Notes under the pieces: model-generated | Databases searched by the model: none | Seen by the model: the letters and a program-made list of their open reading frames with translations, nothing else | What the model was told of the DNA's origin: nothing | Shown here: positions 1,015 to 19,763 of the stretch, in pieces | Layout: each line of letters opens with the position of its first letter | How positions within the stretch are numbered: position 1 is the stretch's first letter | Made by a program: the position numbers and the translations under genes | Origin: a virus | Taxonomy: Duplodnaviria; Caudoviricetes | Strand: one strand, 5' to 3' | IMG/VR virus record: IMGVR_UViG_3300028549_001457 | Coordinates: 1-64,000 of that record | DNA length: 64,000 bases

Positions 1015-2328
1015 ATGCTTAGAGTATCCAGATTGCTACAGGCATCTACTACACACCTTCAAGTGTGGTTAGACCCTGCGGGTGGTATCCACAAGGTCGA
1101 GGGTCAATCTCACCACGCATGGGCGGCATCACACTTAAACATGGAAGACGAAGAGCAAGCTCACGATGAACTCATAGACGCTAATTGGATACGTATAGGT
1201 AAGATGGGCTTTGGGAAATACCTCTCAACGTATGCTGAATCTGGGAATTGGTCCCAAAAAACGTTAACGCGAGTTCAGCATTTTTTAATGACCAACCAGG
1301 AGTTTTACAGTGACACGATGTATGTAGAGAACGGGGACACCTGCATAGACTTAAATATGTCCGAATTCCTTAGCTTTAACAAGGTGTCAGATCTTCTGAG
1401 GTCCCATGTGGCGGGGTATTATGACCCCTCAGGAAACGCTCACGGGGAACTACTATCTAAGACGAATAAGGACCCTAAAGTTATAATATTTCGAGCTGTC
1501 CCAAAGGGGACCGAGACAATTAATACAAAGGACTATGTAACACTATCGAGGCGCTTTGCCGAAGAACACGCAGCCACATCAGCGGTTTACGAAGAAGATC
1601 CCTTTGTAGTATTAAAGAGTTATGTTGCCACTAACCTAGTTGCAGAGGCATACAACCCAGGCGAGTATTTCTATATAGGACCCCCTATCCCAGGAAAAAT
1701 CGTATCTATAGCTAATGACGATGGGCACCTTCGTAAAGTTGCAGATGTGGCACCCTACCAGATACCTATGGATGAAGCTATTAAGGAGCATACAAGGCTT
1801 GTTAAAGTACTCAAGAGCCCCAGCCATAAGGATGACCTTATTGAGGCCGAAGAGCAGGCTGAGGAGCTTGCGGGAATGTACAAAAAAGCTGGGGGGTATG
1901 TATTAACGCCGCCTAAAAAATCAAAGAACCCTCTATATATCAGAGGATGGATACTCCCAGATGGGTCCTTTGAAGAGATCACTCACGAACATGGTGTCGA
2001 TGCATATTACCGACTAGGCGAGGGCAACGAGCACTCCCTCATGAAGCAGGGGTGGATTCGAGTGTATGCCTCTTTGGAGTATCATGAGATTGGGGCGGAA
2101 GCCCATGGGTGGGCTTCCCAAAAATTTAGGAATTTCCAGATGTTCCTAATGAGGAACTCCAGTAAATTTGAGGGATGTCAAGTCTGGATAGAGGGGGGTG
2201 CCATTAAAAATGCACATTCCTTTGAGGACATACTTGCAGCAAATAGCATAACAGACCTAAGAGGCCTTCGCTATGCGGGAAACTCCCTTAGGAACCCACG
2301 TAGCCTTCGGGCAACTCAGGCTCACTAG
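1015..2328 (+). CDS. Multidomain putative virion cargo protein: duplicated WxxPxG...H...WIR domain flanking an ADP-ribosyltransferase-like domain
   Basis: N-terminal LRVSRLL motif; IFRAVPKG...DYVTLSRRFAEEH...EYFY core; internal duplication; GAGG RBS before ATG 1015. Confidence 0.55.
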   Translation: MLRVSRLLQASTTHLQVWLDPAGGIHKVEGQSHHAWAASHLNMEDEEQAHDELIDANWIRIGKMGFGKYLSTYAESGNWSQKTLTRVQHFLMTNQEFYSDTMYVENGDTCIDLNMSEFLSFNKVSDLLRSHVAGYYDPSGNAHGELLSKTNKDPKVIIFRAVPKGTETINTKDYVTLSRRFAEEHAATSAVYEEDPFVVLKSYVATNLVAEAYNPGEYFYIGPPIPGKIVSIANDDGHLRKVADVAPYQIPMDEAIKEHTRLVKVLKSPSHKDDLIEAEEQAEELAGMYKKAGGYVLTPPKKSKNPLYIRGWILPDGSFEEITHEHGVDAYYRLGEGNEHSLMKQGWIRVYASLEYHEIGAEAHGWASQKFRNFQMFLMRNSSKFEGCQVWIEGGAIKNAHSFEDILAANSITDLRGLRYAGNSLRNPRSLRATQAH

Positions 2329-2833
2329 ACCTAACCCACTCAGAATCCAACTCATAGTTATTATATTCGAGTCCCTGGTAGGTCTCGCTAGAAACTTGGG
2401 CCTTTTCCTCAATCCAAACACTAAACAAGGTGTCCTCGGATTTAATGTGGTCCACAAGCCAACTATGCACAAATCTAAGGGTAGTTTCGGTTATTCGAAC
2501 GGGGTCTCTATCAAATCTAATTAAAAAATCATTGAGATCTCTTTTAAGTCTATTATGTATCTCTTTGTGATGGTTGAGACGAGGATACCCCTTAGCCCTC
2601 ATAAGGGCCTCCTCACTGGTAAAATGATGGGATGTGGCAGTAAGAAGTCCTTTTAAATACCAATGGAGCGTTTTTGGGGACGCATGCTCTTTAACGGCTT
2701 CCAAGAACTCATTATGCAGGATGATTAGGCGTTTATGCTCTTCATCGATCCCTGCTATCCCAATTTTTATTTTCTCGGTCCACTCAAATTTTTTCATTTG
2801 AATCCTAAGGATGCAGCCATCTTTATAATACAA
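2288..2833 (-). CDS. Bacteriohemerythrin (non-heme di-iron O2-binding protein); start may be ATG 2797
   Basis: W...IDEEHK...HHFTSEEALM...YP..HHKEIH...WLVDHIKSED: full hemerythrin ligand set. Confidence 0.92.
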   Translation of the reverse strand: MYYKDGCILRIQMKKFEWTEKIKIGIAGIDEEHKRLIILHNEFLEAVKEHASPKTLHWYLKGLLTATSHHFTSEEALMRAKGYPRLNHHKEIHNRLKRDLNDFLIRFDRDPVRITETTLRFVHSWLVDHIKSEDTLFSVWIEEKAQVSSETYQGLEYNNYELDSEWVRSSEPELPEGYVGS

Positions 2834-2872
2834 AAATTAGTTTTGGTGTAGTATATACTTTAGGAGGCCTCC

Positions 2873-3178
2873 ATGCAGTATACCCCTAAGTTAATCGCAA
2901 GTCGGCTATTAGAACTGGCGCATAAATCATCAGATTATTACCAGATTACCGATAGCCTTCCTAACGACTGCACCCTTGATTTTAAAGCACCAGACAGTAT
3001 GCGGGTCATTGTCAATGGGAAAACCAAAGGGTATATATCACCCTGTGAACCTCTTGTTAGCCCATTAGATTCATTTGTGGCGGTCCCGGCAGCTTCTTGG
3101 AAATATATTGACTCGGAAGGAACCCGCATGGGGCTTAGATCCGATGCAAAACATGCCTCCCCTGGGGATTTTGCCTGA
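2873..3178 (+). CDS. Hypothetical protein
   Basis: 101-aa ORF with GGAGG RBS; KLIASRLL near the N-terminus. Confidence 0.7.
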   Translation: MQYTPKLIASRLLELAHKSSDYYQITDSLPNDCTLDFKAPDSMRVIVNGKTKGYISPCEPLVSPLDSFVAVPAASWKYIDSEGTRMGLRSDAKHASPGDFA

Positions 3179-3218
3179 CAGAGTCTCCCTTCTCTTTTAG
3201 AGAAGGCAGGAGGGATTC

Positions 3219-4031
3219 ATGGCAACTAATTGGGAACCCATTGTATACTTAGACCCTAGTCAATACCCCGCAATTGTATCGCACCAAATTTGGTCCCCTG
3301 ACCTATTTAATCATGAAGCCCCTACCTCAGCTCTTGGGAGCCAGATATACAACACCGCAAATGCTAGCGGAACAAATATTTCGCAGCAAATTAACCCCTC
3401 AACGGGATACCCATGGTTTGACACTCCCAGTAACGGTGCTATTAGATACCCATCTGGCCCCGTGCAATACTTTGCAGGGGCTCGATTGGCTGTAAATCTC
3501 AGCCACCCTTTTACGGTGACCACTGGTGAAGATTTGTTGGCCCTGGTATCCCCGCCTCTTGGGTCCCCTTACACGCCTACACCCCAAAAGTTTACAAAAG
3601 AATCCTCATTATGGGCCACTGGGAAATTCTCGTATGCCGCTGGGATCTCTCGTGAAGCTTACACGGGAAGCGTCAACGGATATGGACAGGATGTCTATGA
3701 CATATCACTGCCGGGTCTGCTCCCCTTAATAGATGGGGTTGGAGGAGACCCATATGCCCACGCTACGGGCGTGTATATAGACGGTACGATCTATAAGATT
3801 GACTTTAGTGTTCTAGTAGATTTTGTTTCCGGACTACCAGGAGAGGGTTCCCCGAGTAGCTATCAATATTTTGGGCTATGGGATACCTCCATTGAGGGCT
3901 ACTGGACAACCGGAACTTGGACTGAGCCGAATTGCACACTCTGGTGGGCCTACCCCATGGCGCTCCCTCTTATAGGTTCCCCAGACCTTAGCTCTGTGCT
4001 TTCGATTGGAAAAACTATCTACTGGGTTTAA
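3219..4031 (+). CDS. Hypothetical, possibly virion/tail-fibre-associated protein
   Basis: 270-aa ORF with GGAGG RBS; N-terminal module shared with the 7203-8708 protein. Confidence 0.6.
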   Translation: MATNWEPIVYLDPSQYPAIVSHQIWSPDLFNHEAPTSALGSQIYNTANASGTNISQQINPSTGYPWFDTPSNGAIRYPSGPVQYFAGARLAVNLSHPFTVTTGEDLLALVSPPLGSPYTPTPQKFTKESSLWATGKFSYAAGISREAYTGSVNGYGQDVYDISLPGLLPLIDGVGGDPYAHATGVYIDGTIYKIDFSVLVDFVSGLPGEGSPSSYQYFGLWDTSIEGYWTTGTWTEPNCTLWWAYPMALPLIGSPDLSSVLSIGKTIYWV

Positions 4032-4042
4032 AAAGTTTTTGT

Positions 4043-4072
4043 TGGATTTTTTTAGATAGCCTGCCGTATCTT
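4043..4072 (+). promoter_or_regulatory. Class-E promoter-like motif (TGGATT-N18-TATCTT, CCG before -10)
   Basis: Recurrent motif upstream of the Kelch lipoprotein gene. Confidence 0.6.
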
Positions 4073-4106
4073 ACAGCATGGACTGTGTCCTCTCTGGAGA
4101 TTCGCC

Positions 4107-5675
4107 ATGACCCCCAAACTCATTGCCTCTGTTGCTCTGCTCTTCCTCCTGGCCTGTTCTGGAGGCTCTCCCACGGCAACGACATCCCCCACGGCCCCAG
4201 AAGGTGCCCCCACCAGCATGGGCGTCTTTAGGGCTCTCAAGGCGACAGCCGCCCCCCAGCAGGGGGTCATGGCCGCATCTTCAAACGAATCGGTTGCTAT
4301 GACCCGCGCTCGGAAGACGCATCGTGGAATTCTTCTCAAAAACGGGAAAGTTCTCGTGCTTGGCGGGGAATACGACGCAGACGGATTGTGGGCAACCATT
4401 CCAAGCACGGGGGAACTGTTTGACCCCCAGACGGAACGTTTTACCGCATCAAACGCAAACTTTAAGTATCGGTATGAACGCAACCGGACCACAACATCCT
4501 TTGATTTTGTGACCCTTCCCGATGGCCGCGTTCTGATTGCGGGGGGTCTCACCCCTGGGGCGTATGTTGGGACAACTTCCCTGATGGTCTATGACCCCCA
4601 CACGGACAGTGCCACTGAACTCACCGGGGTATTCCCAGGCGAGGTTCTGAGTGTCGAACACGGATTCTACCTGGACGGAAATAAGGTCCTGTTTACAGGC
4701 CTCCGAAACCCTTTGGACCTCTTGAAAAACAAGTGGGAGTTCTATGATTACGCAATCATCTACGATGTATCCAAGCATACCTCGGAAATGATTCCACATC
4801 CCTATAACTACATGGACTCCGCTGTTTGCGAAGACGCCAATAATATCTACTTTATTGGCGGCTGCACCCCCGACACTGGGTGGAATAACCCCAATAGAGA
4901 TAGTTTTGCAGATGTGGTTAAGTTTGACCGCCATGATAAGGTCTTCACGAAGGTGGGTAGCCTACTCTCCCCTAAGCATGGTATGGGACTTGTTAAGCTT
5001 GAGCATGACCGCGTGGGTGTCTATGGCGGGGTCTCCTGGCACGGAGTCCCTTCTTTGGGCGAAATCACTCGATTGAAGGAAGTTGAAGTTGTAGACCTTA
5101 AGCAAAATACCGCCACTTTTAAGGCCCCCCTACTCTCAGCGGTTGCTTGGATGGACTCAATTGCCCTGCAGGGGACTCCCTATACGCTTCATGCGGGTGG
5201 GGTTGATCATGAAGGTCTTACCGCAAAGAATCAATATGTCCATAATGCGGATGCCAACCTCTCGGGGTCCACGGGAACCCTAGTGGAAGCTCGTAGACTC
5301 CATGCCGTAATTGCCCTCAATAATGGTCTGGTTCTGATTACAGGCGGCGAAAATGAACAGATGCATTCCACCAAGGCTACTGCTGAAATTTATGACGCTC
5401 AGTCAAAAATGTTCGTCAACTTCGTAACGGACCAGATCCAGGCTGGCGAGATCATTAACTTCACCTGCACCAAGGACGTCACCTGGAGCGTGGCCCCTGA
5501 AGATACTGCTATTACAGAAGGGTTTGGGAGCATTGATAGCTCTACGGGTGTTTATACCTCAGATACCTCGAACCCTGTAACACTCATTGTCATGGTAACG
5601 GCAACCCTCAAGAGCGACCCCACCGTCCAGGTAAGTGTTCGTGTTAAGGTCTTTGGAGTGGTCCCTACAACCTAG
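4107..5675 (+). CDS. Lipoprotein with Kelch/galactose-oxidase-type beta-propeller and C-terminal Ig-like domain
   Basis: Lipobox LLLAC; repeats such as RKTHRGILLKNGKVLVLGG and RRLHAVIALNNGLVLITGG; VTWSV...GVYT...VTAT tail. Confidence 0.85.
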   Translation: MTPKLIASVALLFLLACSGGSPTATTSPTAPEGAPTSMGVFRALKATAAPQQGVMAASSNESVAMTRARKTHRGILLKNGKVLVLGGEYDADGLWATIPSTGELFDPQTERFTASNANFKYRYERNRTTTSFDFVTLPDGRVLIAGGLTPGAYVGTTSLMVYDPHTDSATELTGVFPGEVLSVEHGFYLDGNKVLFTGLRNPLDLLKNKWEFYDYAIIYDVSKHTSEMIPHPYNYMDSAVCEDANNIYFIGGCTPDTGWNNPNRDSFADVVKFDRHDKVFTKVGSLLSPKHGMGLVKLEHDRVGVYGGVSWHGVPSLGEITRLKEVEVVDLKQNTATFKAPLLSAVAWMDSIALQGTPYTLHAGGVDHEGLTAKNQYVHNADANLSGSTGTLVEARRLHAVIALNNGLVLITGGENEQMHSTKATAEIYDAQSKMFVNFVTDQIQAGEIINFTCTKDVTWSVAPEDTAITEGFGSIDSSTGVYTSDTSNPVTLIVMVTATLKSDPTVQVSVRVKVFGVVPTT

Positions 5676-5682
5676 ATCCCCC

Positions 5683-5718
5683 AAGATAGAGCCCTCTCAT
5701 GGGGGCTCTATCTTTTTT
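5683..5718 (+). terminator. Intrinsic terminator
   Basis: AAGATAGAGCCC / GGGCTCTATCTT stem followed by a T-tract. Confidence 0.85.
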
Positions 5719-5725
5719 AAAAATA

Positions 5726-5756
5726 TGTATTTTTTCTCTGAATGCCACCGTATTTA
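5726..5756 (+). promoter_or_regulatory. Class-E promoter-like motif (TGTATT-N19-TATTTA)
   Basis: Variant of the recurrent motif, upstream of the NHL lipoprotein gene. Confidence 0.5.
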
Positions 5757-5793
5757 GAGCATGGACCGCTGGTCCTATCTCACAGGAGTCCAC

Positions 5794-7086
5794 ATGAACC
5801 TCAAGTCTCTTGCAACCCCCGCCCTTCTCTCCCTCTTCATCGCTTGCGGCGGTGGCGGTGGCTCTGATAAGCCTGCCCCTCCCGCGCCTGTGGTTGCACC
5901 TGTCATTAGCACCTTTACGGCTTCCGCTACCACGGTGGAATACGGCCAGCCCGTCACCCTTAGCTGGACGCTGGGCGGCGATGCGGCTACCTCCGTGACC
6001 CTCACCAATGCCGATGGGTCTGCTATGACTTGCACCCCTGCGGTGACCAGCACCAGCACTTCTACGGTAGTCACCCCCCGGAAGCGTCAGACCGTCCGTC
6101 TCACTGCCACCAATAGCGCCGGGACCGTCACCAGAGACATCAACCTCGTCAGCCTTGGGGTGGATACTTACTCCAGCACCCTATTCAGCACTGTGGGACA
6201 GTTGGCTAAGGACCCTAGCGGTAACATTTATATGGTGGACCACACTAATTTCTCGCATATCTGGAAGATCACCCCCAGCGGCGTGGTATGGAACTTCGTG
6301 GGACTCAATGTTCTTACTTATCCTGGAGCCATTGCTTGGTCCGTCAAGGACAATGCTTTCCTTGTGACTGTCCAGGGCGGAATGAAGAAGGTCGATCTGG
6401 CCGGGACCATCACGGACCTCCCTGGATATCCTTATTTTAGCTACATAACCGTAGCCAAGGATGGCACCATCTATGGGACTCCTCAGGGCATTGGACATAC
6501 CATCACCAAGATTGACCCCAATGGAACCTTCTCCAGCATCACAGGTGGCGATGAATTCTACCCCGGTAGCTTGGTCCTGGATGCTACTGAAACCAATCTC
6601 TATGTCATGGGTGGTGCTTCCGGTTCGGAAACCGTGGAGGTAGATGGGATGGCTGCGGTACGGTTTAGCTATAGCAACACCATTTCTAAGGTGGACCTCT
6701 CCAATAACTCCATCACGGTGGTTGCGGGTCAGTTTGAAGTCGGGGGCCATGCCGATGGCATCGGAACGGCGGCTACTTTCCAGGTAATTGGCGGTGCTAC
6801 ACTTAGTAACGATGGAACGGCCATTTACCTCACCGATGCTCGGAATGGCCTCATTCGGAAGCTGGATCTTGCTACCGCCACCGTCAGCACGGTAGTCGGG
6901 ACGCTTTCTCCTCAGCCCTACACTGGTGCCACCCCCTTTCAGGCTGGGAGCCTTACTTCTGCGGAGTTCACCCCCGTGGGTCTTGTTCAGAACACGGCTG
7001 GTGATTTGGTCGTTGGCGCTGCCATGCCCAGCATCAACGGAATTATTACAGCCAATAGCCCTGTCTGTGTCGTGACCTTGCCCTAA
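5794..7086 (+). CDS. Lipoprotein with Ig-like domain and NHL/SMP-30-type beta-propeller
   Basis: Lipobox LFIAC-GGGGG; PVISTFTAS...TLTATN Ig-like module; NHL-type repeats (GHADGIGTAATF, IYLTDARNGLIRKLD); AGGAG RBS before ATG 5794. Confidence 0.85.
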   Translation: MNLKSLATPALLSLFIACGGGGGSDKPAPPAPVVAPVISTFTASATTVEYGQPVTLSWTLGGDAATSVTLTNADGSAMTCTPAVTSTSTSTVVTPRKRQTVRLTATNSAGTVTRDINLVSLGVDTYSSTLFSTVGQLAKDPSGNIYMVDHTNFSHIWKITPSGVVWNFVGLNVLTYPGAIAWSVKDNAFLVTVQGGMKKVDLAGTITDLPGYPYFSYITVAKDGTIYGTPQGIGHTITKIDPNGTFSSITGGDEFYPGSLVLDATETNLYVMGGASGSETVEVDGMAAVRFSYSNTISKVDLSNNSITVVAGQFEVGGHADGIGTAATFQVIGGATLSNDGTAIYLTDARNGLIRKLDLATATVSTVVGTLSPQPYTGATPFQAGSLTSAEFTPVGLVQNTAGDLVVGAAMPSINGIITANSPVCVVTLP

Positions 7087-7104
7087 AAGATGGATGATTC
7101 AAAA

Positions 7105-7135
7105 AGAAGGGACTCTCTTTGGAGGGTCCCTTTCT
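7105..7135 (+). terminator. Intrinsic terminator
   Basis: AGAAGGGACTCTC / GAGGGTCCCTTTCT stem. Confidence 0.75.
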
Positions 7136-7202
7136 GTATTTATGATGTATCTTTTTATGTGTGGATCTGTTAACGAATCACTGGCACTGAAGAGCGTGAA
7201 AA

Positions 7203-8708
7203 ATGGCACAATACCATAGTTGGACCGCAGGCACAGGTGAATTTTATAGGCCTGATAGGGCGTTTGATTTAAGTGTAGGGGATACTACAACCTATGCGGA
7301 TGGCGTGTCATTTGGGGGATCACTTCCAACTGGAGACAATACATTTCCCAGTAGCGTCATACTTACACAATCATGGTATTGTTCTGCAAATGTAACAAAC
7401 CTCCCGTTAGCGGGGACCCGTCTAAAGATAATTAGAACGTATTCTATCCCACCACCACCTTACTACGGCACGGGAGAAATGGGGGGTAGGCTAAGGATAA
7501 CAGTCTATAGTGGCCTTAATATGGTGGGGGCCTTTGACATGCTTGAAGGAGACCTCTCACCGGGGTATCCGGAAGTAACTAAAGTAAATCATGATATAGA
7601 AGAATGCACACTAACCATCCCTAATAGTTCTTTTAACTTAAATACACTTCGGGTTGAGGTAACGTGTATTTCCTCGCAGGTTGACCGAGGGACTATTGAA
7701 AGTGAGTGGGCTTTTGGTCAAACCACATGTCAAATTTTAGACATGTGGATAGAAACCACAGCGACTACATATGAACCTATTTTATATGGAGACCCATCAA
7801 CGCAAGGGGGTATTATCACTGAGCACAAGGTATATTCCAGGGACCTATTTAATGTGGCGGATGGGTCCTACAATATTGGAAATGCCTTGGGGCAACCTGT
7901 TAGATACTTTAAACCCTTTCAGTATTATAAGGGGTCACAATTAGGAGCCCCCGCTCAATACTGGCCAACCGAAATGACGGGGAATACAAGAACTGTATCA
8001 AATAACATCACATCTGGGGGTGATGGCACAAGTGCTACCATAAACTATGGGGTTCCGTTTAATGCAACTACCCAAGGTTTAACGGATCTCAGGACAAATA
8101 CAACTAATACTATTGAAGTTACTGCCACGGGCTCATCAGCTCAGTTTAATACCACTCAAATTATAGAGGATGCGTATAGAGGTGATAAATGGAAATACGA
8201 AACTAGGTATTTTAAGTTTGGCTCAAGTATCCCGGCGAATACAAATGTAAGTGTTACATTAGGTATTTCGGCACATGGATCAATAAATGTAGGAGAATAT
8301 CTGGTATCCTATGAAGACCCTAACAACCCTTTGTATATATTATCCAGAACAGAATTTTTAATGGCTAATGGGGGGGCTACGATTGAGTATACGTTGGATG
8401 GTTCCATTTGGCATCTCTTAGATGGGGTCACGCTTGCATGGGATGGTGGCTACGTCAATGGAGAGGTAGGTAAAACCCCAGGAACGGCAATTACATCCCC
8501 CGACCCCCAGGTTGACACCCTAACTCCTATAATTAATATTACAAATAGCTCTACGTTTGCCATAAGAATATCAGCTAGTGCTGAGTATGTAGCACGGAAT
8601 TATTGGGTTAATTCTACAAATAACCCAATAACAACCTATGAAGCGGCACTCACCAGTGCTGGGAGTAGCTTTTCTATTTTGGGCCTGTATTTGACGCCAG
8701 TAACTTAA
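7203..8708 (+). CDS. Hypothetical Thr/Gly-rich, beta-rich protein, possibly virion structural/adhesin
   Basis: 501-aa ORF; composition; internal module similar to the N-terminus of 3219-4031. Confidence 0.55.
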   Translation: MAQYHSWTAGTGEFYRPDRAFDLSVGDTTTYADGVSFGGSLPTGDNTFPSSVILTQSWYCSANVTNLPLAGTRLKIIRTYSIPPPPYYGTGEMGGRLRITVYSGLNMVGAFDMLEGDLSPGYPEVTKVNHDIEECTLTIPNSSFNLNTLRVEVTCISSQVDRGTIESEWAFGQTTCQILDMWIETTATTYEPILYGDPSTQGGIITEHKVYSRDLFNVADGSYNIGNALGQPVRYFKPFQYYKGSQLGAPAQYWPTEMTGNTRTVSNNITSGGDGTSATINYGVPFNATTQGLTDLRTNTTNTIEVTATGSSAQFNTTQIIEDAYRGDKWKYETRYFKFGSSIPANTNVSVTLGISAHGSINVGEYLVSYEDPNNPLYILSRTEFLMANGGATIEYTLDGSIWHLLDGVTLAWDGGYVNGEVGKTPGTAITSPDPQVDTLTPIINITNSSTFAIRISASAEYVARNYWVNSTNNPITTYEAALTSAGSSFSILGLYLTPVT

Positions 8709-8729
8709 AACGGGCACTGGGAGATCATC

Positions 8730-9071: not shown

Positions 9072-9174
9072 TCTGTATATTTTTTAGGTGAGGATCTTCC
9101 TCTTCTATACCAGCTTTACACAGCCGCTAGCTGGTCGGCTTTAATGGGCTCACAAAGCCCCCATAGGAGATGTT

Positions 9175-9560: not shown

Positions 9561-9600
9561 AAGAAAAGAGGACCCCCTTCTTGGGGTCCTCTTTTCTTTT
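9561..9600. terminator. Bidirectional-type intrinsic terminator
   Basis: AAGAAAAGAGGACCCC / GGGGTCCTCTTTTCTT 16-bp stem. Confidence 0.85.
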
Positions 9601-9614
9601 ATATGAGGTTAGTT

Positions 9615-10481
9615 ATGCTAAGAATTTCCAGACTCTTGAGTGGGATGGCTCGTCTGACTAGAGAGCAGAAGCAGGACCGAGAAGATATGCTAGACCCAGG
9701 TGTTGCAAGTAATACACGCATTGAGTTATTTAAGAAAATATTTGGGAACACTATTGACTTCAATGCGGGGGGAGGTCACTGGCTGTGGACTGGTGCTGCT
9801 GAAAACTCTAAAGGTAAGACGGGCACATATGGCAAAGTAACCATGCTTGGCAAGAGTGGGCTAAGAATTCACAAACTTGCATATGAAGTAGCCAATGGCC
9901 CGGTTATTCAGCGCGATGGGATTAAACCAAACGACCCCATGTATCTGGAAGTAGATCATAAATGTAGAGTCCCTCTTTGCTGCAATCCGGACCATTTGCA
10001 GGTTATTGAAAAACACCTCAACAGTAAATTAGTGACTGAAAGGGCCAATGAGGATAAGATGGAGCATGGCAGGCGTCCCGACGAGGATTATATTGGGAAG
10101 CTTCGCCAGGAGAATGATGCTCTTGCATATCGAGTTTTTTCAGCCTGGAAGAAACAAAAATATTTACCCGATTTTTGGTATTATCTAAATGAATTTAAGA
10201 ATTTTTATGAAGAATGGTTAGAGGAGCTTAGGCTTTCAGCGGATGAGTCTACTGCAGTAGAGGCGTGTTGGCACCTAGCTAATAAAATACAGGTTACCGA
10301 GAAGAAGGGTAACCCGGCCCAAACCCACGCAGACCTAAAGCGACTCACCAAAAAAGGCCCCAAGGAGGAAGAGGACCCCAACGAAGACGTCTCAGATGCG
10401 TATGTAGAAAACGCCGAGGACATTAACTTGGATAACTTCTTCGAGGGTATCGAAGACCCTGAGTTGGTTGGGGCAAAATAA
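9615..10481 (+). CDS. HNH (His-Me finger) endonuclease with C-terminal helical/acidic extension
   Basis: WLWTGA...YGK...RIHKLAYEVANGP...EVDHKCRVPLCCNPDHL; N-terminal LRISRLL; GAGG RBS before ATG 9615. Confidence 0.85.
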   Translation: MLRISRLLSGMARLTREQKQDREDMLDPGVASNTRIELFKKIFGNTIDFNAGGGHWLWTGAAENSKGKTGTYGKVTMLGKSGLRIHKLAYEVANGPVIQRDGIKPNDPMYLEVDHKCRVPLCCNPDHLQVIEKHLNSKLVTERANEDKMEHGRRPDEDYIGKLRQENDALAYRVFSAWKKQKYLPDFWYYLNEFKNFYEEWLEELRLSADESTAVEACWHLANKIQVTEKKGNPAQTHADLKRLTKKGPKEEEDPNEDVSDAYVENAEDINLDNFFEGIEDPELVGAK

Positions 10482-11380: not shown

Positions 11381-11386
11381 GAGATT

Positions 11387-11416: not shown

Positions 11417-11432
11417 GTAGCGGGAGGTTTTT

Positions 11433-12279: not shown

Positions 12280-12287
12280 GAGGACCA

Positions 12288-12488
12288 ATGAAAGACGCAA
12301 CCCTGAACTACCAAGAGTGTTTGGCTTGGAGAACCCTATTTCCAAACCATACATATAGCCCAACCCTAGATGCAATCGTTAGGAAGACGAATGAGATCCA
12401 GGTCCAAGTGAACCCCACAGAACTCGAGTTTCCAAATACGAAGCTGGCGCTAGATCCAACCAGAATTTATAGAACAGTCCTCCAGTAA
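12288..12488 (+). CDS. Hypothetical protein
   Basis: 66-aa ORF with GGAGG RBS. Confidence 0.65.
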   Translation: MKDATLNYQECLAWRTLFPNHTYSPTLDAIVRKTNEIQVQVNPTELEFPNTKLALDPTRIYRTVLQ

Positions 12489-12502
12489 ACATACGTGGAT
12501 CA

Positions 12503-12543
12503 ATAATAATAAAAGCACCCATAGGGGGTGCTTTTATTATTAT
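12503..12543. terminator. Bidirectional-type intrinsic terminator
   Basis: ATAATAATAAAAGCACCC / GGGTGCTTTTATTATTAT 18-bp stem. Confidence 0.85.
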
Positions 12544-12666
12544 ACGCAAAATTTTTCTATTTGTATGAATCTAGATGGGTACCAGTTCTCTGCATTTTCC
12601 TTTTGTGAAGTGGGGCTACATTACACCAGTAGACCATGACGCCTAAAACTAGCTAAAGGACTCAAA

Positions 12667-14793
12667 ATGAGTGTTCCACACCGTAGTAGAACCGAACTAG
12701 CACAAGTCCTCGCAGAAAAAAATGAACGGGTTCGTCTTCTAGAAGCTGATTGTAAACGCCTTCAGAAAGAGGCGCTTGACGCAAGAGTAATTCGAAGAGA
12801 AATATTCAAGTTGGCGGATGCCAAACCAGAACTCCCTGGTTGGATGTTGGACTCCAGCAAGGCTCCTTCAAAGGGGCCTGGAATCCCCGTGGCAGTAGCT
12901 AGCGACTGGCATTGGGGTGAAAGGATCTCTCCAGAACAGATTGGTGGCGTCAACAAATATAATATTGAAATCGCACATGCGAGAGCAAAGGCTTTCTTCA
13001 GCGGAATAATTACTCTGCTGAAGAACTATATGGTGAAACCCGAGTATGAAGGCATTGTTCTCTGCTTGGGAGGGGATATGCTTTCAGGAAATATTCATGA
13101 AGAATTAGCCCAAACTAATGAGCTTCAAACCATGCCTGCTATGTTGGACCTCTATGGCGTTTTGGTTGAAGGCATTGACAGTCTTCTAAAAGAATTCGGA
13201 AGTGTTGTTATACCTTGTGTTACGGGTAACCATGGAAGAAATACCCTGAAGATGCAAGCTAAAGAACGTTGCTATACGTCATTTGACTGGCTTCTATATC
13301 AAATGCTTGAAAAGCATTATGAGAAGAATAAAAAAGTTCGGTTCTTAATCTCAGGTGGCGTGGACCAACTATTTAAGGTATACAACCACCGCTTCTTGCT
13401 AACTCACGGAGACAGCTTGGGCAAAGGCGGCGATGGAATCATCGGATGCCTAGGCCCTGTTATTCGAGGTGACAGCAAGACCAGATCACGAAACGGCCAA
13501 ATTGGCCAGGAATACGACACAATGCTCATTGGACATTATCATCAGTTGATGTTCCTTTCTAAGGTTATTATTAATGGATGTTTCCCGGCGGGAAGTCTTG
13601 TAACATGTGGACACTCGCATAAGCCTATTGAAGAAGTCAATGTGGGAGACACTGTGTTATCCCATGATGGCACGTGGAACACAGTTACTAATAAACTTCA
13701 AAAAATGTCAGATGAAGGGCTAATACACCTGAAAATCAGAGGTCTTGCTAAGCCTCTAACATGCACCCCAAATCACATGCTTTGGGCCATTAAAGGCCAG
13801 ACCAAGAAGTGTGCGGCTATAGGGGTTAAATGGGATGCTTTGCAGGGAGATGGGGACAAACCTCAATGGATCCCGGCAGATTACATCTCTCCCGAAGATT
13901 TTGTATCCATACCAGTGTTCAACGGAGGTGGTGCGACTCCCATAACACCTGACTTGGCGTGGGCATATGGGCTATATATAGCGGAGGGACATGCGCTTGT
14001 CAGAGGGGGGGCCAAAGGCCTGCACAATCGCGTGGCTTTAACAATGCACGACAGAGAACTTCCGGTGTTGGAGAAATTTGCGAAGATTATGGCAGAAAAC
14101 CACCCTGAATTGGTAGATTATCGCGTGTATACTCGAACCAGATCCAATGGCGGATTAACATCCGAGTATGTGTGCTCGGGTAAAAATATCGCGGCTTGGT
14201 TCAGAGATCAATTTGGGCACCTTGCCATAGGGAAGCAGCTACCAGAATGGATGCTGGATATGACGCCAGAACTTAAACGATGTGTTGTTCAAGGTTGGAT
14301 TGACGGTGATGGGCACACTTCAAAACGTGATTCCGCTATAAGTGTTACGACAATCTCCCCCGTATTAGCTCATCAAATGTTTGATATGGCTATGTCTTGT
14401 GGATTAAACCCGTCCCTAATGACGTTAGCTAAGGGTGGCCCCCGAAAAAATGACTCATACAGTATATGGTTTAGGCAGGGTCAAGAATCAATCGTTGTAG
14501 ATGGTGTGGTTTTCAACCGGGTCAACGCTCGCTACAGAGATACTCAAGTGGTCCCAGTGTATGATCTTGAGGTGTCGGGACCCCACACATACACTGTAAA
14601 CCACTGTGGAGTCCACAACTCTCTTTGCGGTTATAACGAATTTGCCTCAAACATGTTGAGAGCGCCCTTCGAGGTACCCAGACAGGCGCTGTTCTGTGTG
14701 CATCCTGAGCACGGAATAACCTACCAAATGCCCATATTGGTTGAGCCCCACAAGGTAGATAAGGTTCAGAAGTGGGTTTCCTGGACAGAATAA
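12667..14793 (+). CDS. Calcineurin-like metallophosphoesterase interrupted by an intein
   Basis: SDWHWGE, LGGDMLSG, GNHGR, THGD, GHYH motifs; extein junction IING|SLCGYNEF. Confidence 0.88.
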   Translation: MSVPHRSRTELAQVLAEKNERVRLLEADCKRLQKEALDARVIRREIFKLADAKPELPGWMLDSSKAPSKGPGIPVAVASDWHWGERISPEQIGGVNKYNIEIAHARAKAFFSGIITLLKNYMVKPEYEGIVLCLGGDMLSGNIHEELAQTNELQTMPAMLDLYGVLVEGIDSLLKEFGSVVIPCVTGNHGRNTLKMQAKERCYTSFDWLLYQMLEKHYEKNKKVRFLISGGVDQLFKVYNHRFLLTHGDSLGKGGDGIIGCLGPVIRGDSKTRSRNGQIGQEYDTMLIGHYHQLMFLSKVIINGCFPAGSLVTCGHSHKPIEEVNVGDTVLSHDGTWNTVTNKLQKMSDEGLIHLKIRGLAKPLTCTPNHMLWAIKGQTKKCAAIGVKWDALQGDGDKPQWIPADYISPEDFVSIPVFNGGGATPITPDLAWAYGLYIAEGHALVRGGAKGLHNRVALTMHDRELPVLEKFAKIMAENHPELVDYRVYTRTRSNGGLTSEYVCSGKNIAAWFRDQFGHLAIGKQLPEWMLDMTPELKRCVVQGWIDGDGHTSKRDSAISVTTISPVLAHQMFDMAMSCGLNPSLMTLAKGGPRKNDSYSIWFRQGQESIVVDGVVFNRVNARYRDTQVVPVYDLEVSGPHTYTVNHCGVHNSLCGYNEFASNMLRAPFEVPRQALFCVHPEHGITYQMPILVEPHKVDKVQKWVSWTE
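13579..14619 (+). mobile_element. Intein (347 aa) with LAGLIDADG homing endonuclease domain
   Basis: Starts CFPAGSLV...IEEVNVGDTVLSHDG; AYGLYIAEG and VQGWIDGDG motifs; ends VYDLEV...TYTVNHCGVHN followed by Ser. Confidence 0.93.
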
Positions 14794-14805
14794 TGGGTTC
14801 TTGAA

Positions 14806-14854
14806 GACTATCCGGGTGAGAGGCAGGATAGTCCCGGTGACATTCTTGCCTCTC
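14806..14854. ncRNA. Candidate H-type pseudoknot in intergenic region
   Basis: GACTATCC(14806-13)/GGATAGTC(14826-33) and GAGAGGCA(14818-25)/TGCCTCTC(14847-54), two interlocked perfect 8-bp stems. Confidence 0.45.
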
Positions 14855-14894
14855 CAGCAAACCCCTTAAGTCCCTTTAGGTGTGGGGGGCTTAA

Positions 14895-15530
14895 ATGACA
14901 ATTATCGCTGCTTACCGGGGGCCTGATGGTGTTTATATGGCCGGTGATTCTATGGCCGCAGATGCGAATGACACTATCTATGTATGTGACCCCAAAGTGT
15001 TTGCGTTTAGTGGGTTCACCATTGGGTATGCTGGGAGTTTCCGTTTAGGGCAGATCTTAAACCATTGTTTTAACCCCCCACCACACAACCCCATCCTAGA
15101 TGACTCTACATATATGTTCTCCGTTTGGCTTGAGAATCTTCGGGAAACGTTAGATTCTTATGGGCTGCTTAAAACTGAGAACGGTGTGGATGGCGTGGGT
15201 GAAGATGGATCTGCCCTAGTAGCTTATAGAGATAATTTGTATCATATTCAAGAAGATTTATCTATTCTAAAGGTATCCCAACCTTTTTCCGCAATAGGGG
15301 TTGGAATGAGCTACGCTATTGGAGCGATGCATGCACTCCATGGCACCCCAGGGATGTCAAGCGAGGATATTTTGTCGAAAGCTATGAGTGCCGCTGTAAA
15401 CCACTGCCCACGTTGTGGAGGCACCATAACCATGATTAAACACGAACCCTCCGCAGAGGTGCGCTGGAGAAGGCCTAGGTCGGCCAACAAGAAGAAACCT
15501 AAAATAGTTGAATCAGCGAAGAAAATCTAA
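14895..15530 (+). CDS. Ntn-hydrolase (HslV/proteasome-beta-like) peptidase
   Basis: Thr2 nucleophile (MTIIAA), AGDS, PKVF, GYAGSFR, SAIGVG motifs. Confidence 0.75.
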   Translation: MTIIAAYRGPDGVYMAGDSMAADANDTIYVCDPKVFAFSGFTIGYAGSFRLGQILNHCFNPPPHNPILDDSTYMFSVWLENLRETLDSYGLLKTENGVDGVGEDGSALVAYRDNLYHIQEDLSILKVSQPFSAIGVGMSYAIGAMHALHGTPGMSSEDILSKAMSAAVNHCPRCGGTITMIKHEPSAEVRWRRPRSANKKKPKIVESAKKI

Positions 15531-15577
15531 TATATGATGTAAAAATGGGGTGTATATAGAGTTGGAGGACCACTCTA

Positions 15578-15817
15578 ATGAACCCCAAACCTAAATATTC
15601 TGTGGAAGTACGTCAGCGTGGGGCGCACCAAGATGATATCTTGCTGCAAACAGATGCTTTTCGGGATGCGTTGGCAGAATACGAGCGATTAACCACAAAA
15701 TTGGCAGAAACCCTTAACACATGCTCGTATGATATTGTAGCATTCTATGTAAGAGACACAGGAAATTATATTCCTGTGGTAATGTCATCTGTTGAAACAA
15801 AACTCATGGAGTATTAA
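15578..15817 (+). CDS. Hypothetical protein
   Basis: 79-aa ORF with GGAGG RBS. Confidence 0.65.
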   Translation: MNPKPKYSVEVRQRGAHQDDILLQTDAFRDALAEYERLTTKLAETLNTCSYDIVAFYVRDTGNYIPVVMSSVETKLMEY

Positions 15818-15850
15818 CTCCTACCTAAAATCCTATGAACAGGAGCACTC

Positions 15851-16429
15851 GTGGAAACACTTAAGGTAAAAATCAAGGCGCTTCCAGATACGGCAATGCT
15901 TCACCACAACATTCGTCTAGCAAACCCCATGGATGAAGGCTCCCTTAAAATGAAGAGCCTCACATCTGTTAGAAAAAAAACTGAGGAAGTTTATATGGGG
16001 ATTGCAGATGTAGAGTTTGAATATGGGATGTATTATGATGCCCGTATTGGGCCATATATCCCAGGTATTTGGCTAGATGCAACGCTGATTGAAGGCGGTA
16101 AGCTCCAGAAAAACGGGAGTAAGATCAAACGTAGCACACTTGTTGTGGACACCATCATCCCTCTGGAGTATGATGGTCCAAGAGATATGGAGGCTTTAAA
16201 GGCGGATATGCGGTTTCGAGATATCCGTGCTGTGACCATTGGGACCTCTAAGAATATGCGATGCCGACCCAGGTTTACAGACTGGAAAGCCCAATTTACA
16301 ATTCAGTATAATCCGGACCTTATTAATAAGGATGAGTTAGTTGTTGCCCTAAAGACAGCGGGTGCTTGTATTGGTCTGGGTGATTATCGCCCCCGTTTTG
16401 GTCGATTTGAAGTTGAATCTGTGAGGTAA
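15851..16429 (+). CDS. RAMP/Cas7-like RRM-fold protein, not in a cas operon
   Basis: GPYIPG; RCRPRFTDWKAQFTIQY; C-terminal G-rich loop AGACIGLGDYRPRFGRFEV; AGGAG RBS, GTG start. Confidence 0.7.
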   Translation: METLKVKIKALPDTAMLHHNIRLANPMDEGSLKMKSLTSVRKKTEEVYMGIADVEFEYGMYYDARIGPYIPGIWLDATLIEGGKLQKNGSKIKRSTLVVDTIIPLEYDGPRDMEALKADMRFRDIRAVTIGTSKNMRCRPRFTDWKAQFTIQYNPDLINKDELVVALKTAGACIGLGDYRPRFGRFEVESVR

Positions 16430-16431
16430 TT

Positions 16432-16884
16432 ATGGCGAGTCCAGCGTTAATTTGGAGAGCCGCGCTACTTGAGTTCTTAGATGAGAACCATGTCCCTGGG
16501 GACATTATTGAACACAAGTGGTTCTTGGACCATTTTAAGATGGAAGTCCCTGAGACTATGTCGAAGCATGAATGGGGTAAGTGGAGCCTAAAATTTCTAA
16601 GCTACTTTATGCCATTTAGAGAGCACCTACTTAAAGACCACTTCATTGACTTACAATCTATTGGGGGGGATAACTTTCAAATTATTCCCCCAGAGGAACA
16701 AACCAGAAGTGCAGTGCTAGAATTAGGTGGCAACTATAAAAGAATTCATAGAAGGTGCTCAAATAGGCTACGGTATGTTAATAAAGATAAACTTACTCAG
16801 CAACAGCTCCAGGAGAATGCGGATGCATTAGCAAAGGTAGCTCAACTCAAAGCTATGGCGCAACCTATCTGGAAAGTTGAGTAA
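16432..16884 (+). CDS. Partner of the RAMP-like gene; possible winged-helix N-terminus and helical C-terminus
   Basis: 2-bp gap after the RAMP-like gene; LQSIGGDNFQIIPPEEQ resembles a wHTH wing. Confidence 0.6.
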   Translation: MASPALIWRAALLEFLDENHVPGDIIEHKWFLDHFKMEVPETMSKHEWGKWSLKFLSYFMPFREHLLKDHFIDLQSIGGDNFQIIPPEEQTRSAVLELGGNYKRIHRRCSNRLRYVNKDKLTQQQLQENADALAKVAQLKAMAQPIWKVE

Positions 16885-16919
16885 CCTAACTTAGCAAGAA
16901 GACTTTAAAGTAGAAACCT

Positions 16920-16955
16920 AAGAAGAAGACTCCACACAAGGGGTCTTCTTCTTTT
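16920..16955. terminator. Intrinsic terminator closing the RAMP-like operon
   Basis: AAGAAGAAGACTCC / GGGGTCTTCTTCTT stem plus T-tract. Confidence 0.8.
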
Positions 16956-16957
16956 AT

Positions 16958-18139
16958 ATGAGGTTTCGAATGATCCATTCCGCTAGAATTCTGTGCGCGG
17001 CTAGATATGTCCACATAGCTAATAAACTGAGTCATGTAATTGCTGCTGCGTGTAAACAAGCCTCGGGAGGGAGTGCAAACGCTCTCATGAATAAGTTGGC
17101 GGGGGAGAAATGGAAGATAAATGGGAGGTTGCAATATGCCCCTATAGTTCCTGGGGTAACCCCTTGGGATGTTGAGGGCGATACTACTAAGCGATACGAC
17201 TATGATGAGTATATGGACGGGGCGATCCATTCTGAAGCAATTAAATATAGAATTTCAGATCCGGAACAAATATACGAGATAACCCAGGAGTTCCTTACAC
17301 AGTTTATACCCAAGCTACGTGAGTATATCCAAAAAAGGCTTGATGAACACGATATAACAACTCCAGAAGGGCTTAGATCTTTTCAAGAAAAATTAAGGAA
17401 TAATTTTAGTACATCTGCTAGCAACTATGTAATTTCGTTAATGAGGGACCAAAAGAACAGGTTGGAAAGGGAGTCTGATAGCGGGGACTTCGCTACAAGC
17501 GGAGGTCCTTCGGTATTTGAGAGAACCCCAGGAAACCATGAGGATGCTGACACACGGTATTTGCGCGATGCCGCTCAAAACGCACGTTTCTTGAAGGATC
17601 TGAAAGAGTATGCAGATGGTGTGTCTGTAAAGACATCAAAAGCCATTCGAACCCTGGTAAACCTCATGCGTGATGGGTACCTTAAGGGAGACGTTAGCCC
17701 AGATTTGCGAGATCAAATCCAGGGGGCCATTAAGCGAGTTATCCCTGGATTTTTAAAAAGAAACCCGGTTTATGAAGACAATCTAGTCTCGTTTTTAAAA
17801 CAGTATGCACGGGATGTCAAGAAAACAAACCAGGAAGACCCATTTAAGGGAAATGTGTCGTTAAGCCTAAGGAATCAAGAGCAGAAAAACGCCTGGGAGT
17901 TCTTAAAGCGTTTAGAGGAAGGTCCCCTAGAGGGCCGTACATGGCGAAAATCGTATGGAGACTACTCACTAGATGTTCTGGTAGAAACCCTAAATAAATG
18001 GGGATACACAGTAGATGTTGCGTGGCTTCCTAACCTATCCGAGGAAGAGATTTCAGACATACGTAATAATTCTGGGACAGCGTTCAGATCTAAAATATAC
18101 ACACTTGTAAAAAAACCTTTAAGGTCGCAAATAGCTTAA
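16958..18139 (+). CDS. Hypothetical, paralog of 18168-19763; possible divergent sigma70-like region
   Basis: Shared C-terminal blocks with the downstream gene; N-terminal IHSARIL motif. Confidence 0.55.
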   Translation: MRFRMIHSARILCAARYVHIANKLSHVIAAACKQASGGSANALMNKLAGEKWKINGRLQYAPIVPGVTPWDVEGDTTKRYDYDEYMDGAIHSEAIKYRISDPEQIYEITQEFLTQFIPKLREYIQKRLDEHDITTPEGLRSFQEKLRNNFSTSASNYVISLMRDQKNRLERESDSGDFATSGGPSVFERTPGNHEDADTRYLRDAAQNARFLKDLKEYADGVSVKTSKAIRTLVNLMRDGYLKGDVSPDLRDQIQGAIKRVIPGFLKRNPVYEDNLVSFLKQYARDVKKTNQEDPFKGNVSLSLRNQEQKNAWEFLKRLEEGPLEGRTWRKSYGDYSLDVLVETLNKWGYTVDVAWLPNLSEEEISDIRNNSGTAFRSKIYTLVKKPLRSQIA

Positions 18140-18167
18140 GTGATTTGCTTTTAGTGAGGACTTTCAA

Positions 18168-19763
18168 ATGATACATGTATCGAGACTCTTAATAGCAAGA
18201 AATATAATTGCTACAATTAAACGAATTATTGTAGCTGCTGCGGGGGAAGCTGAGGTAGATCGGGTTAGCCTTGAGACTATGGGCTCAGCCATTAGGGACC
18301 TCATAAAATTATGGAGTGAAACCCCCATTGAGTTCAATGGCGAGATGACATACCCACCAATTAATATTGATGGGATGCCAAACCCCGAGGCATGGTTATA
18401 TTATAAAGCTAAACCGCGTGTGGTGAACTCAAATGTTCCCCTATCCGAGTTAGCTACAGCTATTATTGACAGCATGACTGCTCTGGATAATCCAGCTACC
18501 AAAACCATGCAGAGGGGTGTTACTAAAGCTAGATCAATCAAGGACTGGATGCATATCTGGATGCAGGTTGTTTACAATGGATCGGCTCCGGGGTCCGCAT
18601 ATACAGGCCCGGCATACGGAACCTTAAAGAGCCCCGAGGCTATTGCGGCATTTAACCAGCTATTTTGGGGAGGTTTGCAGGTAAGAGTCCAAAAAATGGC
18701 GTCTGATATGGTGAAATCTAGAGGAAATGGGTCTACAGTATCTCTCTCGGGAGAGTCTGCACCTCAACTAGCGGATACTACGTCTGATTTCAGAATTGAT
18801 GATAAGTTCCTCCCTGATTTAGCCGCATATGTGTCAAACTTGGAGCCTAGTCTAGCGAACCCTCTAAAACTCATGATGAGATTTATGAACGGATCCCTAA
18901 ATGAGGAAGTTTCGGAGACACAAAAAGAGGAGATTCGTCAGGCGGTGCTAGCGGTAATCCCAGAATTTAGGGAGGAATACCCAGAGTATGACGCAGACTT
19001 CATCTCCTATTTTAGAAAATTCTCTAAAGAGATCAATGAATACGTCCCTCAGAAAGCATATAAGCAAGAAAAGCAATTCAGCCCAAAACAAGCTTTCCTG
19101 GATGCAATGGAATCTGGAATGATTATTAGAGGGAATGTCCAGAAGGGCTCAGGGTATACACCCCCAACACCCCCAGCTAAGCATGGCACCTGCTTTAAAA
19201 ATCCAGGTAGTGTAGACGGACAAGCATGGAGACAGGCGGGGTTCACAGAGTCTTTGGATAGGCTGACTGCAAATTTACGTAAAGAGGGTTATGATATCTC
19301 TGTGCAGACCAAGCCAGGGGCTGAGAGCCTCCCTGGATGGGCGGAAGCTAAGGCGCGGGGGTCTGTCTGGAGATACAGGATCTATACTCTAATCAGCGCA
19401 CCCCAAAAAGAGCGTATAGCTTCATACAGAACTTCATCAACCAAGATGGACGCTAAGACGGTGAAACGTATTAAGGCCCTCTTATGGTCTGTGGGACAAT
19501 CCCCTGTAGCAGATATTCCTTTAGAAAGTATTCAGAAAATTTTAAAAGAAGGTGGGTATACACTTACTCAGGAGGATGGAACCCCATGGGAAGGGTTTAT
19601 ATTCGCACCAACAGAAAGCCAGCAAAGAGAACTTTTTGAGATTGGCAAGCTTCCCAAGACAGATAATCCCTTGGAAGTCTGTGAGCCAATAGACACAAAG
19701 CTCCTGCTTACATGGTATAAATTTCAGACGGGGAAATACGAGGTAGTTGGCTACTTAAATTAG
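18168..19763 (+). CDS. Hypothetical, paralog of 16958-18139 with an extra C-terminal domain
   Basis: N-terminal IHVSRLLIA; VIPEF..YPEY...F.SY; SLDRLTANLRKEGY; YRIYTL; tail IPLESI...QEDGTPWEG...WYKFQTGKYEVVGYL. Confidence 0.55.
   Translation: MIHVSRLLIARNIIATIKRIIVAAAGEAEVDRVSLETMGSAIRDLIKLWSETPIEFNGEMTYPPINIDGMPNPEAWLYYKAKPRVVNSNVPLSELATAIIDSMTALDNPATKTMQRGVTKARSIKDWMHIWMQVVYNGSAPGSAYTGPAYGTLKSPEAIAAFNQLFWGGLQVRVQKMASDMVKSRGNGSTVSLSGESAPQLADTTSDFRIDDKFLPDLAAYVSNLEPSLANPLKLMMRFMNGSLNEEVSETQKEEIRQAVLAVIPEFREEYPEYDADFISYFRKFSKEINEYVPQKAYKQEKQFSPKQAFLDAMESGMIIRGNVQKGSGYTPPTPPAKHGTCFKNPGSVDGQAWRQAGFTESLDRLTANLRKEGYDISVQTKPGAESLPGWAEAKARGSVWRYRIYTLISAPQKERIASYRTSSTKMDAKTVKRIKALLWSVGQSPVADIPLESIQKILKEGGYTLTQEDGTPWEGFIFAPTESQQRELFEIGKLPKTDNPLEVCEPIDTKLLLTWYKFQTGKYEVVGYLN

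Follow-up and report, generated by a model that had tools for sequence, protein, structure and literature searches.

How do proteins with different bodies come to begin with almost the same ten residues? The question is raised by four genes in the first 64,000 bp (the window) of IMG/VR record IMGVR_UViG_3300028549_001457, an uncultured phage genome of 278,785 bp with a CheckV completeness of 95%. The genes start at positions 1015, 9615, 16970 and 18168 and open M-[LI]-[RH]-[VIS]-[SA]-R-[LI]-L, a start that we call the tag. The initial annotation had pointed to these near-identical starts and suggested a capsid-loading signal. We find about 14 tagged genes in the whole genome, the four of the window and 10 elsewhere, and tags of other sequence in relatives and in Bacillus phage G. 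The tag is very probably a recognition peptide for a phage-encoded partner; the probability that it loads enzymes into the prohead we put at roughly 0.45. The plus strand carries nearly all genes of the window, and the four tagged ones are:

1015..2328, plus strand: g002, 437 amino acids (aa), three modules; tag MLRVSRLLQA at 1015-1044
9615..10481, plus strand: g011, HNH endonuclease, 288 aa; tag MLRISRLLSG at 9615-9644
16970..18139, plus strand: g020, 389 aa, no assigned function; tag MIHSARILCA at 16970-16999
18168..19763, plus strand: g021, 531 aa, no assigned function; tag MIHVSRLLIA at 18168-18197

The tag in this genome

A strict pattern, M[LIVM][RHK].[SA]R[LIVM][LIVM], was applied to the six-frame translation of the whole genome. 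It gave 10 matches, all at an ATG that opens an open reading frame (ORF) of 99-531 aa. A position-specific scoring matrix (PSSM) of the tag and a motif-free clustering of all candidate N-termini served as complementary genome-wide searches. The PSSM added four looser members, MLKISKILSG (183892, minus strand), MLKVSKLLTS (187439), MLRVSQILVA (193861) and MLRVSRLFLA (219700), and in the clustering the tag group, with 13 members, was the only genuine cluster. The 5-residue core falls inside the first 12 residues in 11 of its 23 occurrences, against a 4.2% share of residues at such positions (p = 6e-10). The near-identical starts are thus present as first described, and clustering, PSSM and position agree that the motif is enriched over background N-termini throughout the genome, where its consensus is M-[LI]-[KRH]-[VIS]-[SA]-R-[LIV]-L-x-[small].

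Nucleotide identity in codons 2-8 of the tagged genes is 0.52, 0.83 and 0.35 at codon positions 1, 2 and 3, with a background of about 0.27 in codons 11-20. Ser5, Arg6 and Leu8 are almost invariant, while Ser5 is written with six different codons, AGC among them, and Arg6 with AGA, AGG and CGA. Because synonymous codons vary while the amino acids are kept, selection acts on the peptide and not on the DNA. Conservation stops beyond residue 10, and the bodies that follow fall into different protein families (Pfam, PHROG). The carriers had been called otherwise unrelated, which holds except for g020 and g021; these two are paralogous (BLASTP E = 2e-14) and therefore count as one independent case.

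In three of the four window cases the longest ORF begins a few codons earlier, at ATGs at 967, 9603 and 16958. These upstream ATGs lie inside or before the Shine-Dalgarno (SD) sequence, e.g. tatATGAGGttagttATG, and for the genes at 9615 and 16970 the upstream ATG forms part of the ribosome-binding site (RBS) itself (tatATGAGGtt...ATG). We take 1015, 9615, 16970 and 18168 as the correct starts because GAGG stands 7-8 nt upstream of each.

A fifth member had been proposed in the following gene:

2873..3178, plus strand: g004, 101 aa, with K-L-I-A-S-R-L-L at residues 6-13 (2888-2911)

The peptide is present, but it is internal and scores below the PSSM threshold. The predicted proteome has just two occurrences of the form [IVL]A[SA]R[IVL][LIVA], and the g004 peptide resembles both this genome's tag and the I-A-S-R-V tag of relatives described below, looking intermediate between the two types. 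Pfam and PHROG searches of g004 gave no match. We regard g004 as a doubtful case, a divergent member of the tag group at best.

Two further sets of starts were seen outside the window. Within a cluster of tagged genes, a 13-codon open stretch without a start codon (183024-183062) reads SLKVSRLLNP and is probably left over from a tagged gene since lost. The adjacent genes at 229315-230352 and 230454-231155 have a common upstream sequence and the N-terminus MASPLIPTTVDSRA, a tail-fibre N-terminal module, and a third gene of fibre type, at 237936, opens MATIYIPTTVNSRS. These shared starts were rejected as tags, being paralogous fibre anchors.

Tags of relatives and of Bacillus phage G

The DNA pattern of this genome's tag gave nine matches here, none in 21 related records (about 5 Mb) and none in the own-genome control. 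De novo clustering of N-termini in two relatives found a second tag type, M-[DN]-[FL]-x-[RK]-I-A-[SA]-R-[VI]-A. Ten of the 21 relatives gave 26 matches to the corresponding DNA pattern, whereas this genome and the reversed-pattern controls gave none. The carriers form a clade of 200-440 kb relatives with the same capsid protein, and the matches open diverse ORFs of 81-257 aa, one of which, in a relative, encodes an S-adenosylmethionine (SAM) lyase. With one residue deleted the two types align conservatively (K-I-A-S-R-I-A with K-V-S-R-L-L), so that a common descent of this genome's tag and the relatives' tag is plausible on sequence. Scans of whole collections with the DNA patterns (IMG/VR, and metagenomes among the matches listed) returned almost only chance matches in short or out-of-frame ORFs.

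Small second-tag genes (81-228 aa) also stand in tandem arrays, six in 3 kb in relative G015 (306001-309000) and four in 4 kb in relative G004 (316001-328000). These arrays recall the variable internal-protein loci of T-even phages.

In the cultured Bacillus phage G (NC_023719.1, 497 kb), 21 genes open M-[KR]-R-L-x-[KR], mostly MKRLxKK[AS]; examples are gp17 at 16055, gp284 at 207449, gp334 at 244460 and gp346 at 255160. In every case mapped (18 genes) the tagged start is the annotated coding-sequence start. These genes have strong RBSs and start with ATG, TTG or GTG, and the Arg codons of their tags are AGA, CGT, CGA and CGC. Their products include a ParB-like nuclease, a NUDIX protein and a ferritin-like protein (gp346). 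We found no mention of the MKRL tag of phage G in the literature; more broadly, the tag strings of all lineage types had no occurrence in the searchable literature, where no published description of the tag was found.

The tag is thus conserved at the peptide level, specific to the N-terminus, different between lineages and spread across phages with the phage-G-type capsid. That it is a recognition peptide for a phage-encoded partner is very probable: proteins with nothing else in common carry it in near-identical form in a given genome, the motif is exchanged as a whole from one lineage to the next, and only N-terminal copies are kept. Uniformity within a genome together with difference between lineages is what a co-evolving phage-encoded receptor would lead one to expect. 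New here are the tagged genes of the window with their corrected starts, the second tag type found in a clade of relatives, the tag of phage G, and the evidence of fusion and decay that follows.

Fusion and decay of tagged genes

The three modules of g002 are a WLxPxG-type module (residues 11-120), a widespread domain of about 100 aa (residues 132-245) and, at residues 306-420, the first module again. At one module border stands a further copy of the tag:

1375..1404, plus strand: decayed internal tag FNKVSDLLRS, residues 121-130 of g002, at the border of two modules; PSSM score 10.3

Homologs of the g002 modules were sought in a library of 1.8 billion proteins. The middle domain has 247 homologs, some of them parts of 1000-1800 aa proteins. 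The tag opens three homologs of the first module (MIKVSKILKA, MIKSSKILIA and MIRVSKILVA), whose contigs carry additional tagged genes. One related contig of 36 kb has an ortholog of the ADP-ribosyltransferase (ART)-like protein (MIKTSRILKA) and a ferritin-like protein (MIKSSKLFKG); its ortholog of the CCA-adding enzyme is fused behind another tagged module, with its own MVKVSRLLKA intact. A tag-bearing protein of the ferritin family (PF00210) was seen in the relative ERZ27245386 k141_616020, at 21030-21488.

Where tags lie at inner module borders they have partly decayed: FNKVSDLLRS in g002, SIKVSKSYKL in a relative, and MNVASRILTA ahead of the last module of a 766-aa multi-enzyme protein at 240,513, which itself has a tag-like start (MIYSAGLF). 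Such decayed copies fit a signal that works at a free N-terminus only. Judged from these comparisons, tagged genes fuse and split, and the tag is strictly kept only where it is N-terminal.

The tagged proteins

The HNH label given to g011 is confirmed by its matches to Pfam HNH_3 (E = 3.5e-7, residues 85-134) and phrog_1872 (E = 1.3e-19). The other functional labels fared worse. The product of g002 had been called ART-like, which finds no support; a Pfam search of it gave no match, and its PHROG match is phrog_2579, 'ParB C-terminal domain' (E = 3.9e-10), in the middle domain. The proteins at 16970 and 18168 had been called sigma-like, a label for which we find only low-confidence structural look-alikes: a structure search (ESM Atlas) of g020 returned weak sigma-factor look-alikes from a query model with a predicted local distance difference test (pLDDT) of 0.47, and for g021 ESM Atlas gives no usable match. 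A homolog search with g021 returns g021 itself alone. Like g011 it is a near-orphan, and searches for relatives with single tagged proteins as queries found nothing.

Outside the window the tagged genes include several for proteins of unknown function and the following:

outside the window: g160, tagged ART-PolyVal ADP-ribosyltransferase (PF18760, E = 9e-15)
outside the window: tagged, free-standing CCA-adding enzyme
outside the window: tagged RNA ligase, adjoining the terminase gene

The RNA ligase and terminase genes are also adjoined by g207, an untagged gene for a polyvalent-type InPase protein. No tagged protein has the hydrophobic core of a Sec or Tat signal peptide, residues 9-25 being polar and variable in all members.

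The upstream motif

A T-rich motif followed by GAGG precedes each tagged gene of the window:

995..1006, plus strand: CTTTTTG-N-GAGG (T-run and SD), before g002
9596-9608, plus strand: CTTTTA..GAGG, before g011, which a hairpin and T-run also precede
16951-16963, plus strand: CTTTTA..GAGG, before g020
18148-18159, plus strand: CTTTTA..GAGG, before g021

CTTTT(T)[AG]..GAGG occurs within 45 nt upstream of 10 of the 14 tagged genes and of 39 of the 248 other genes (p = 1.3e-5). In several cases the motif is the T-run of a terminator-like hairpin that ends just before the RBS; tagged genes therefore look like self-contained cassettes. The initial annotation had equated the motif with one before structural genes. 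This is correct for the protease gene and some fibre genes, but the capsid, scaffold and portal genes lack it. The idea that the T-run pairs with the SD was dropped, the pairing probability of the SD window being 0.49 in tagged and 0.54 in other genes (p = 0.31).

The head module

The head genes of the window were located as follows.

29910..31115, plus strand: g036, prohead (head maturation) protease; phrog_18299 'head maturation protease', E = 5e-11
31216..32553, plus strand: g037, putative scaffold, 445 aa, acidic and of low complexity; called by composition and by its place between the protease and capsid genes
32764..33234, plus strand: g038, 156 aa, likely capsid decoration protein, by position only
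33246..34121, plus strand: g039, major capsid protein of phage-G type, 291 aa, by tblastn

The protease is conserved in 51 related contigs, and its gene order matches that of the annotated protease of Tunturiibacter phage Tunturi_5. Between g037 and the scaffolds of relatives no similarity was detectable. The gene g038 directly precedes the capsid gene, which is the place of gp26, 'capsid decoration', in phage G. By tblastn g039 is 39.8% identical to the major head protein of Tunturi_5 (E = 9e-56) and 36.7% identical to gp27 of phage G (E = 2e-52), and its family is present in 49 of the 51 related IMG/VR contigs, many of 200-440 kb. The capsid call rests on tblastn because the AlphaFold2 model of g039 (pLDDT 49.8) was too poor for a structure search. 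Pfam capsid and protease families gave no match in the genome; PF03420 (Peptidase_S77, gp21 type) and PF07068 (gp23 type) likewise had no match here, and the controls for these two were also silent.

A complex prediction with the capsid protein, the scaffold and residues 1-36 of the HNH protein gave a score of 0.00 with a partner pLDDT of 33, which speaks neither for nor against binding. We dropped the idea that the tag mimics the scaffold C-terminal tail (QQVTRLSALLKDFS) or the protease tail; head-module PSSM scores are at background in this genome and in two relatives. The scaffold tail of the relatives, LExLWDRP, is unlike their tag.

Two neighbours of these genes were noted. Directly upstream of the protease gene, 27969-29828 encodes a 619-aa protein with a TonB-dependent receptor plug domain (PF07715, E = 1e-17), which is unusual in a phage. 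Right after the capsid gene, which is complete without it, stands a free-standing LAGLIDADG endonuclease gene (34288-35514).

Possible capsid loading and its alternatives

We picture the tag as a portable address: a short, basic, amphipathic stretch that would be read by a phage-encoded partner, and that genes would gain, keep, and lose after fusion. The partner would most likely be the interior of the assembling prohead, either the scaffold core or the inner face of the capsid, and by analogy with the prohead core of T4 the scaffold g037 is a candidate receptor. On this view the head would close around the tagged proteins (nucleases, the ADP-ribosyltransferase, RNA-repair enzymes and proteins of unknown function), which would enter the host along with the DNA, and the prohead protease (29910-31115) may trim the tag. 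Such loading is the best reading, at our rough probability of 0.45. In its favour, the cargo resembles domain types tied to virion delivery, all tag-bearing phages share one capsid family, and the polyvalent-type g207 lies beside the tagged RNA ligase and the terminase gene.

Several observations weigh against loading. We infer the capsid destination, the ejection with the DNA and the cleavage, none of which any result here shows. A T4-type (L/I)-x-E protease site after the tag is absent in the 14 tagged genes; position 10 is small (A, G or S) in 11 of the 14, and no other residue of cleavage type is conserved. The isoelectric points of tagged proteins run from 4.0 to 8.7 against a proteome median of 5.7; their charge follows no trend, and they are not basic like the internal proteins of T4. 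Sigma-70-like sites before tagged genes number 36, against 31.9 +/- 5.8 in shuffles, and no temporal class can be derived from them. In Tunturi_5, which has the same capsid family, an N-terminal tag cluster was not found, and none of the RefSeq labels of the 18 mapped tagged genes of phage G reads 'virion structural protein'. The tagged gp346 was reportedly detected by particle proteomics of phage G (PMC12484599). That particle proteome is permissive, with 55% of nucleic-acid-metabolism ORFs detected, so that the detection of gp346 is weak evidence.

In the chief rival the capsid has no part, and the tag would dock its proteins elsewhere: on a phage-encoded chaperone or adaptor, on a leader-recognising modifying enzyme, or at a site of replication or assembly in the cell. 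We consider this unlikely, yet the data as such show only a specific, co-evolving recognition peptide. This genome does encode a radical-SAM enzyme; the tag, however, lacks Cys and any other residue characteristic of the leaders of radical-SAM enzymes, and its cargo consists of full-size folded enzymes rather than peptides. Cargo types and the common capsid family point instead to the virion. Nor was the tubulin of nucleus-forming phages found in this genome. Import into a phage nucleus is itself unlikely, since no PhuZ-type tubulin was found and the head is of phage-G and not phiKZ type; chimallin itself was not searched for. Quite improbable, to our minds, is an N-terminal degron that exposes the proteins to an AAA+ protease such as ClpXP, directly or through a phage adaptor, for destruction at a set time. 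Basic-hydrophobic N-termini resemble the N-terminal recognition motifs of ClpX, and phage G encodes a ClpP-like gp257 and a ClpX-like gp258. ClpP (PF00574), though, is absent from this genome, in a search that gave matches in 13 of 14 control genomes, and a host protease would leave unexplained why one capsid family has three unrelated tags, each uniform within its genome. We know of no degron common to some 14-21 phage proteins.

Two simpler accounts would do without a specific partner or without a role for the peptide. A short, basic, amphipathic tag with hydrophobic residues at i, i+3 and i+4 would suit a generic helix that anchors its proteins to the inner membrane. Such helices tolerate wide variation, however, which fits poorly with almost invariant residues and with a motif that changes as a block between lineages; 8-10 residues are also short for stable membrane binding, and a hydrophobic core for Sec or Tat export is missing. 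We therefore hold little hope for this account. We give still less to an expression cassette, in which a promoter or RBS module was copied with the first codons and the peptide is without a role. Such copying would explain why the upstream motif is common among tagged genes, and two convergent genes at 266-267 kb do share a longer identical upstream stretch. The codon data contradict it: third positions are at background identity with the amino acids kept (Ser as TCN or AGC, Arg as AGA, AGG or CGA). The start codon itself varies in phage G, four of the 14 tagged genes here lack the upstream motif, and pairing in the SD region is the same as in other genes.

If loading into the prohead is right, a wider proposal is that phages with the phage-G-type capsid, from the cultured phage G to the uncultured ones of 200-440 kb, have an old cargo-loading system in common, with one tag per lineage (MKRLxKK[AS], M[DN][FL]x[RK]IA[SA]R[VI]A and M[LI]KVSRLLxA) co-evolving with a receptor in the head interior. 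This is tentative, and we would sooner bet against it than for it. Were it true, any gene could become an injected effector by acquiring ten codons, which would explain how ready-made anti-defence, RNA-repair and takeover enzymes are delivered before phage gene expression. Capsid loading alone would mean that the injected DNA of these huge phages is accompanied by a variable set of at least a dozen enzymes (nucleases, an ADP-ribosyltransferase, tRNA-repair enzymes, a SAM lyase). Such a set would far exceed the few internal proteins of T4 and alter the view of early infection and counter-defence in large phages, and a tag of 8-10 residues would offer an easy way to load proteins of choice into phage particles. 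Wherever the proteins go, the three tags of distinct sequence in one capsid family provide natural co-variation data from which the receptor could be found. Phage G is cultured and its particle proteomics is published, so that bench work can already answer the question.

Comparison with known systems

The capsid-targeting sequence (CTS) of T4, MKTYQEFIAE, binds the prohead core, brings the internal proteins IPI-III and the ADP-ribosyltransferase Alt into the head, and is then removed by the head protease (Mullaney and Black 1996, as cited in PMC7411985 and 10.1101/2021.01.19.427310). Like the tag, it is about 10 residues long, at the extreme N-terminus, and common to otherwise unrelated, fast-changing accessory proteins; both have hydrophobic residues at positions 4, 7 and 8 and a small one at position 9, both have an ADP-ribosyltransferase among their cargo, and both belong to genes in variable clusters. 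The suggestion of an analogous, undescribed signal stands to this extent: unrelated proteins carry an N-terminal peptide that is portable, selected at the protein level and like the CTS in length and hydrophobic positions. The two differ in sequence, with no similarity and no residue identity beyond Met1. The tag here is net basic, unlike the acidic one of T4, and has no Glu cleavage site for the gp21 protease; the capsid is of phage-G and not T4 gp23 type. There are also more tagged genes (14 here, 21 in phage G).

In phage P1 an N-terminal signal directs the large anti-restriction protein DarB, or a reporter, into the capsid (PMC9024508). Nine residues are too few for that signal, which takes up to 30, and no consensus unites the Dar proteins, whereas here one short consensus stands on many proteins. 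Iyer et al. 2017 linked ART and ParB-like domains to virion packaging in polyvalent proteins (PMC5512222). The same repertoire of conflict domains recurs here (ART-PolyVal, ParB-like, NUDIX, HNH, InPase), with predicted host entry together with the DNA, and tagged modules also fuse into multi-module proteins. In this genome ART-PolyVal is found in the tagged g160 and InPase in the untagged g207, and g002 is multi-module without a Pfam match. The difference is that the cargo here consists mostly of separate genes, each with its own tag, and not of a giant polypeptide processed by an embedded peptidase.

The cargo-loading peptides of encapsulins are similar in that a short peptide brings cargo proteins of unrelated kinds, ferritin-like ones among them, into an HK97-fold shell; they differ in being usually C-terminal. 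Ferritin-like proteins are classic encapsulin cargo.

Other genes of the window

An SbcD-type exonuclease gene (12667-14793; phrog_284, E = 9e-37) is split by an intein with Hint and LAGLIDADG domains. A Kelch-repeat beta-propeller protein of 522 aa is encoded at 4107-5675, and both it and its neighbour at 5761-7086 have signal-peptide-like N-termini.

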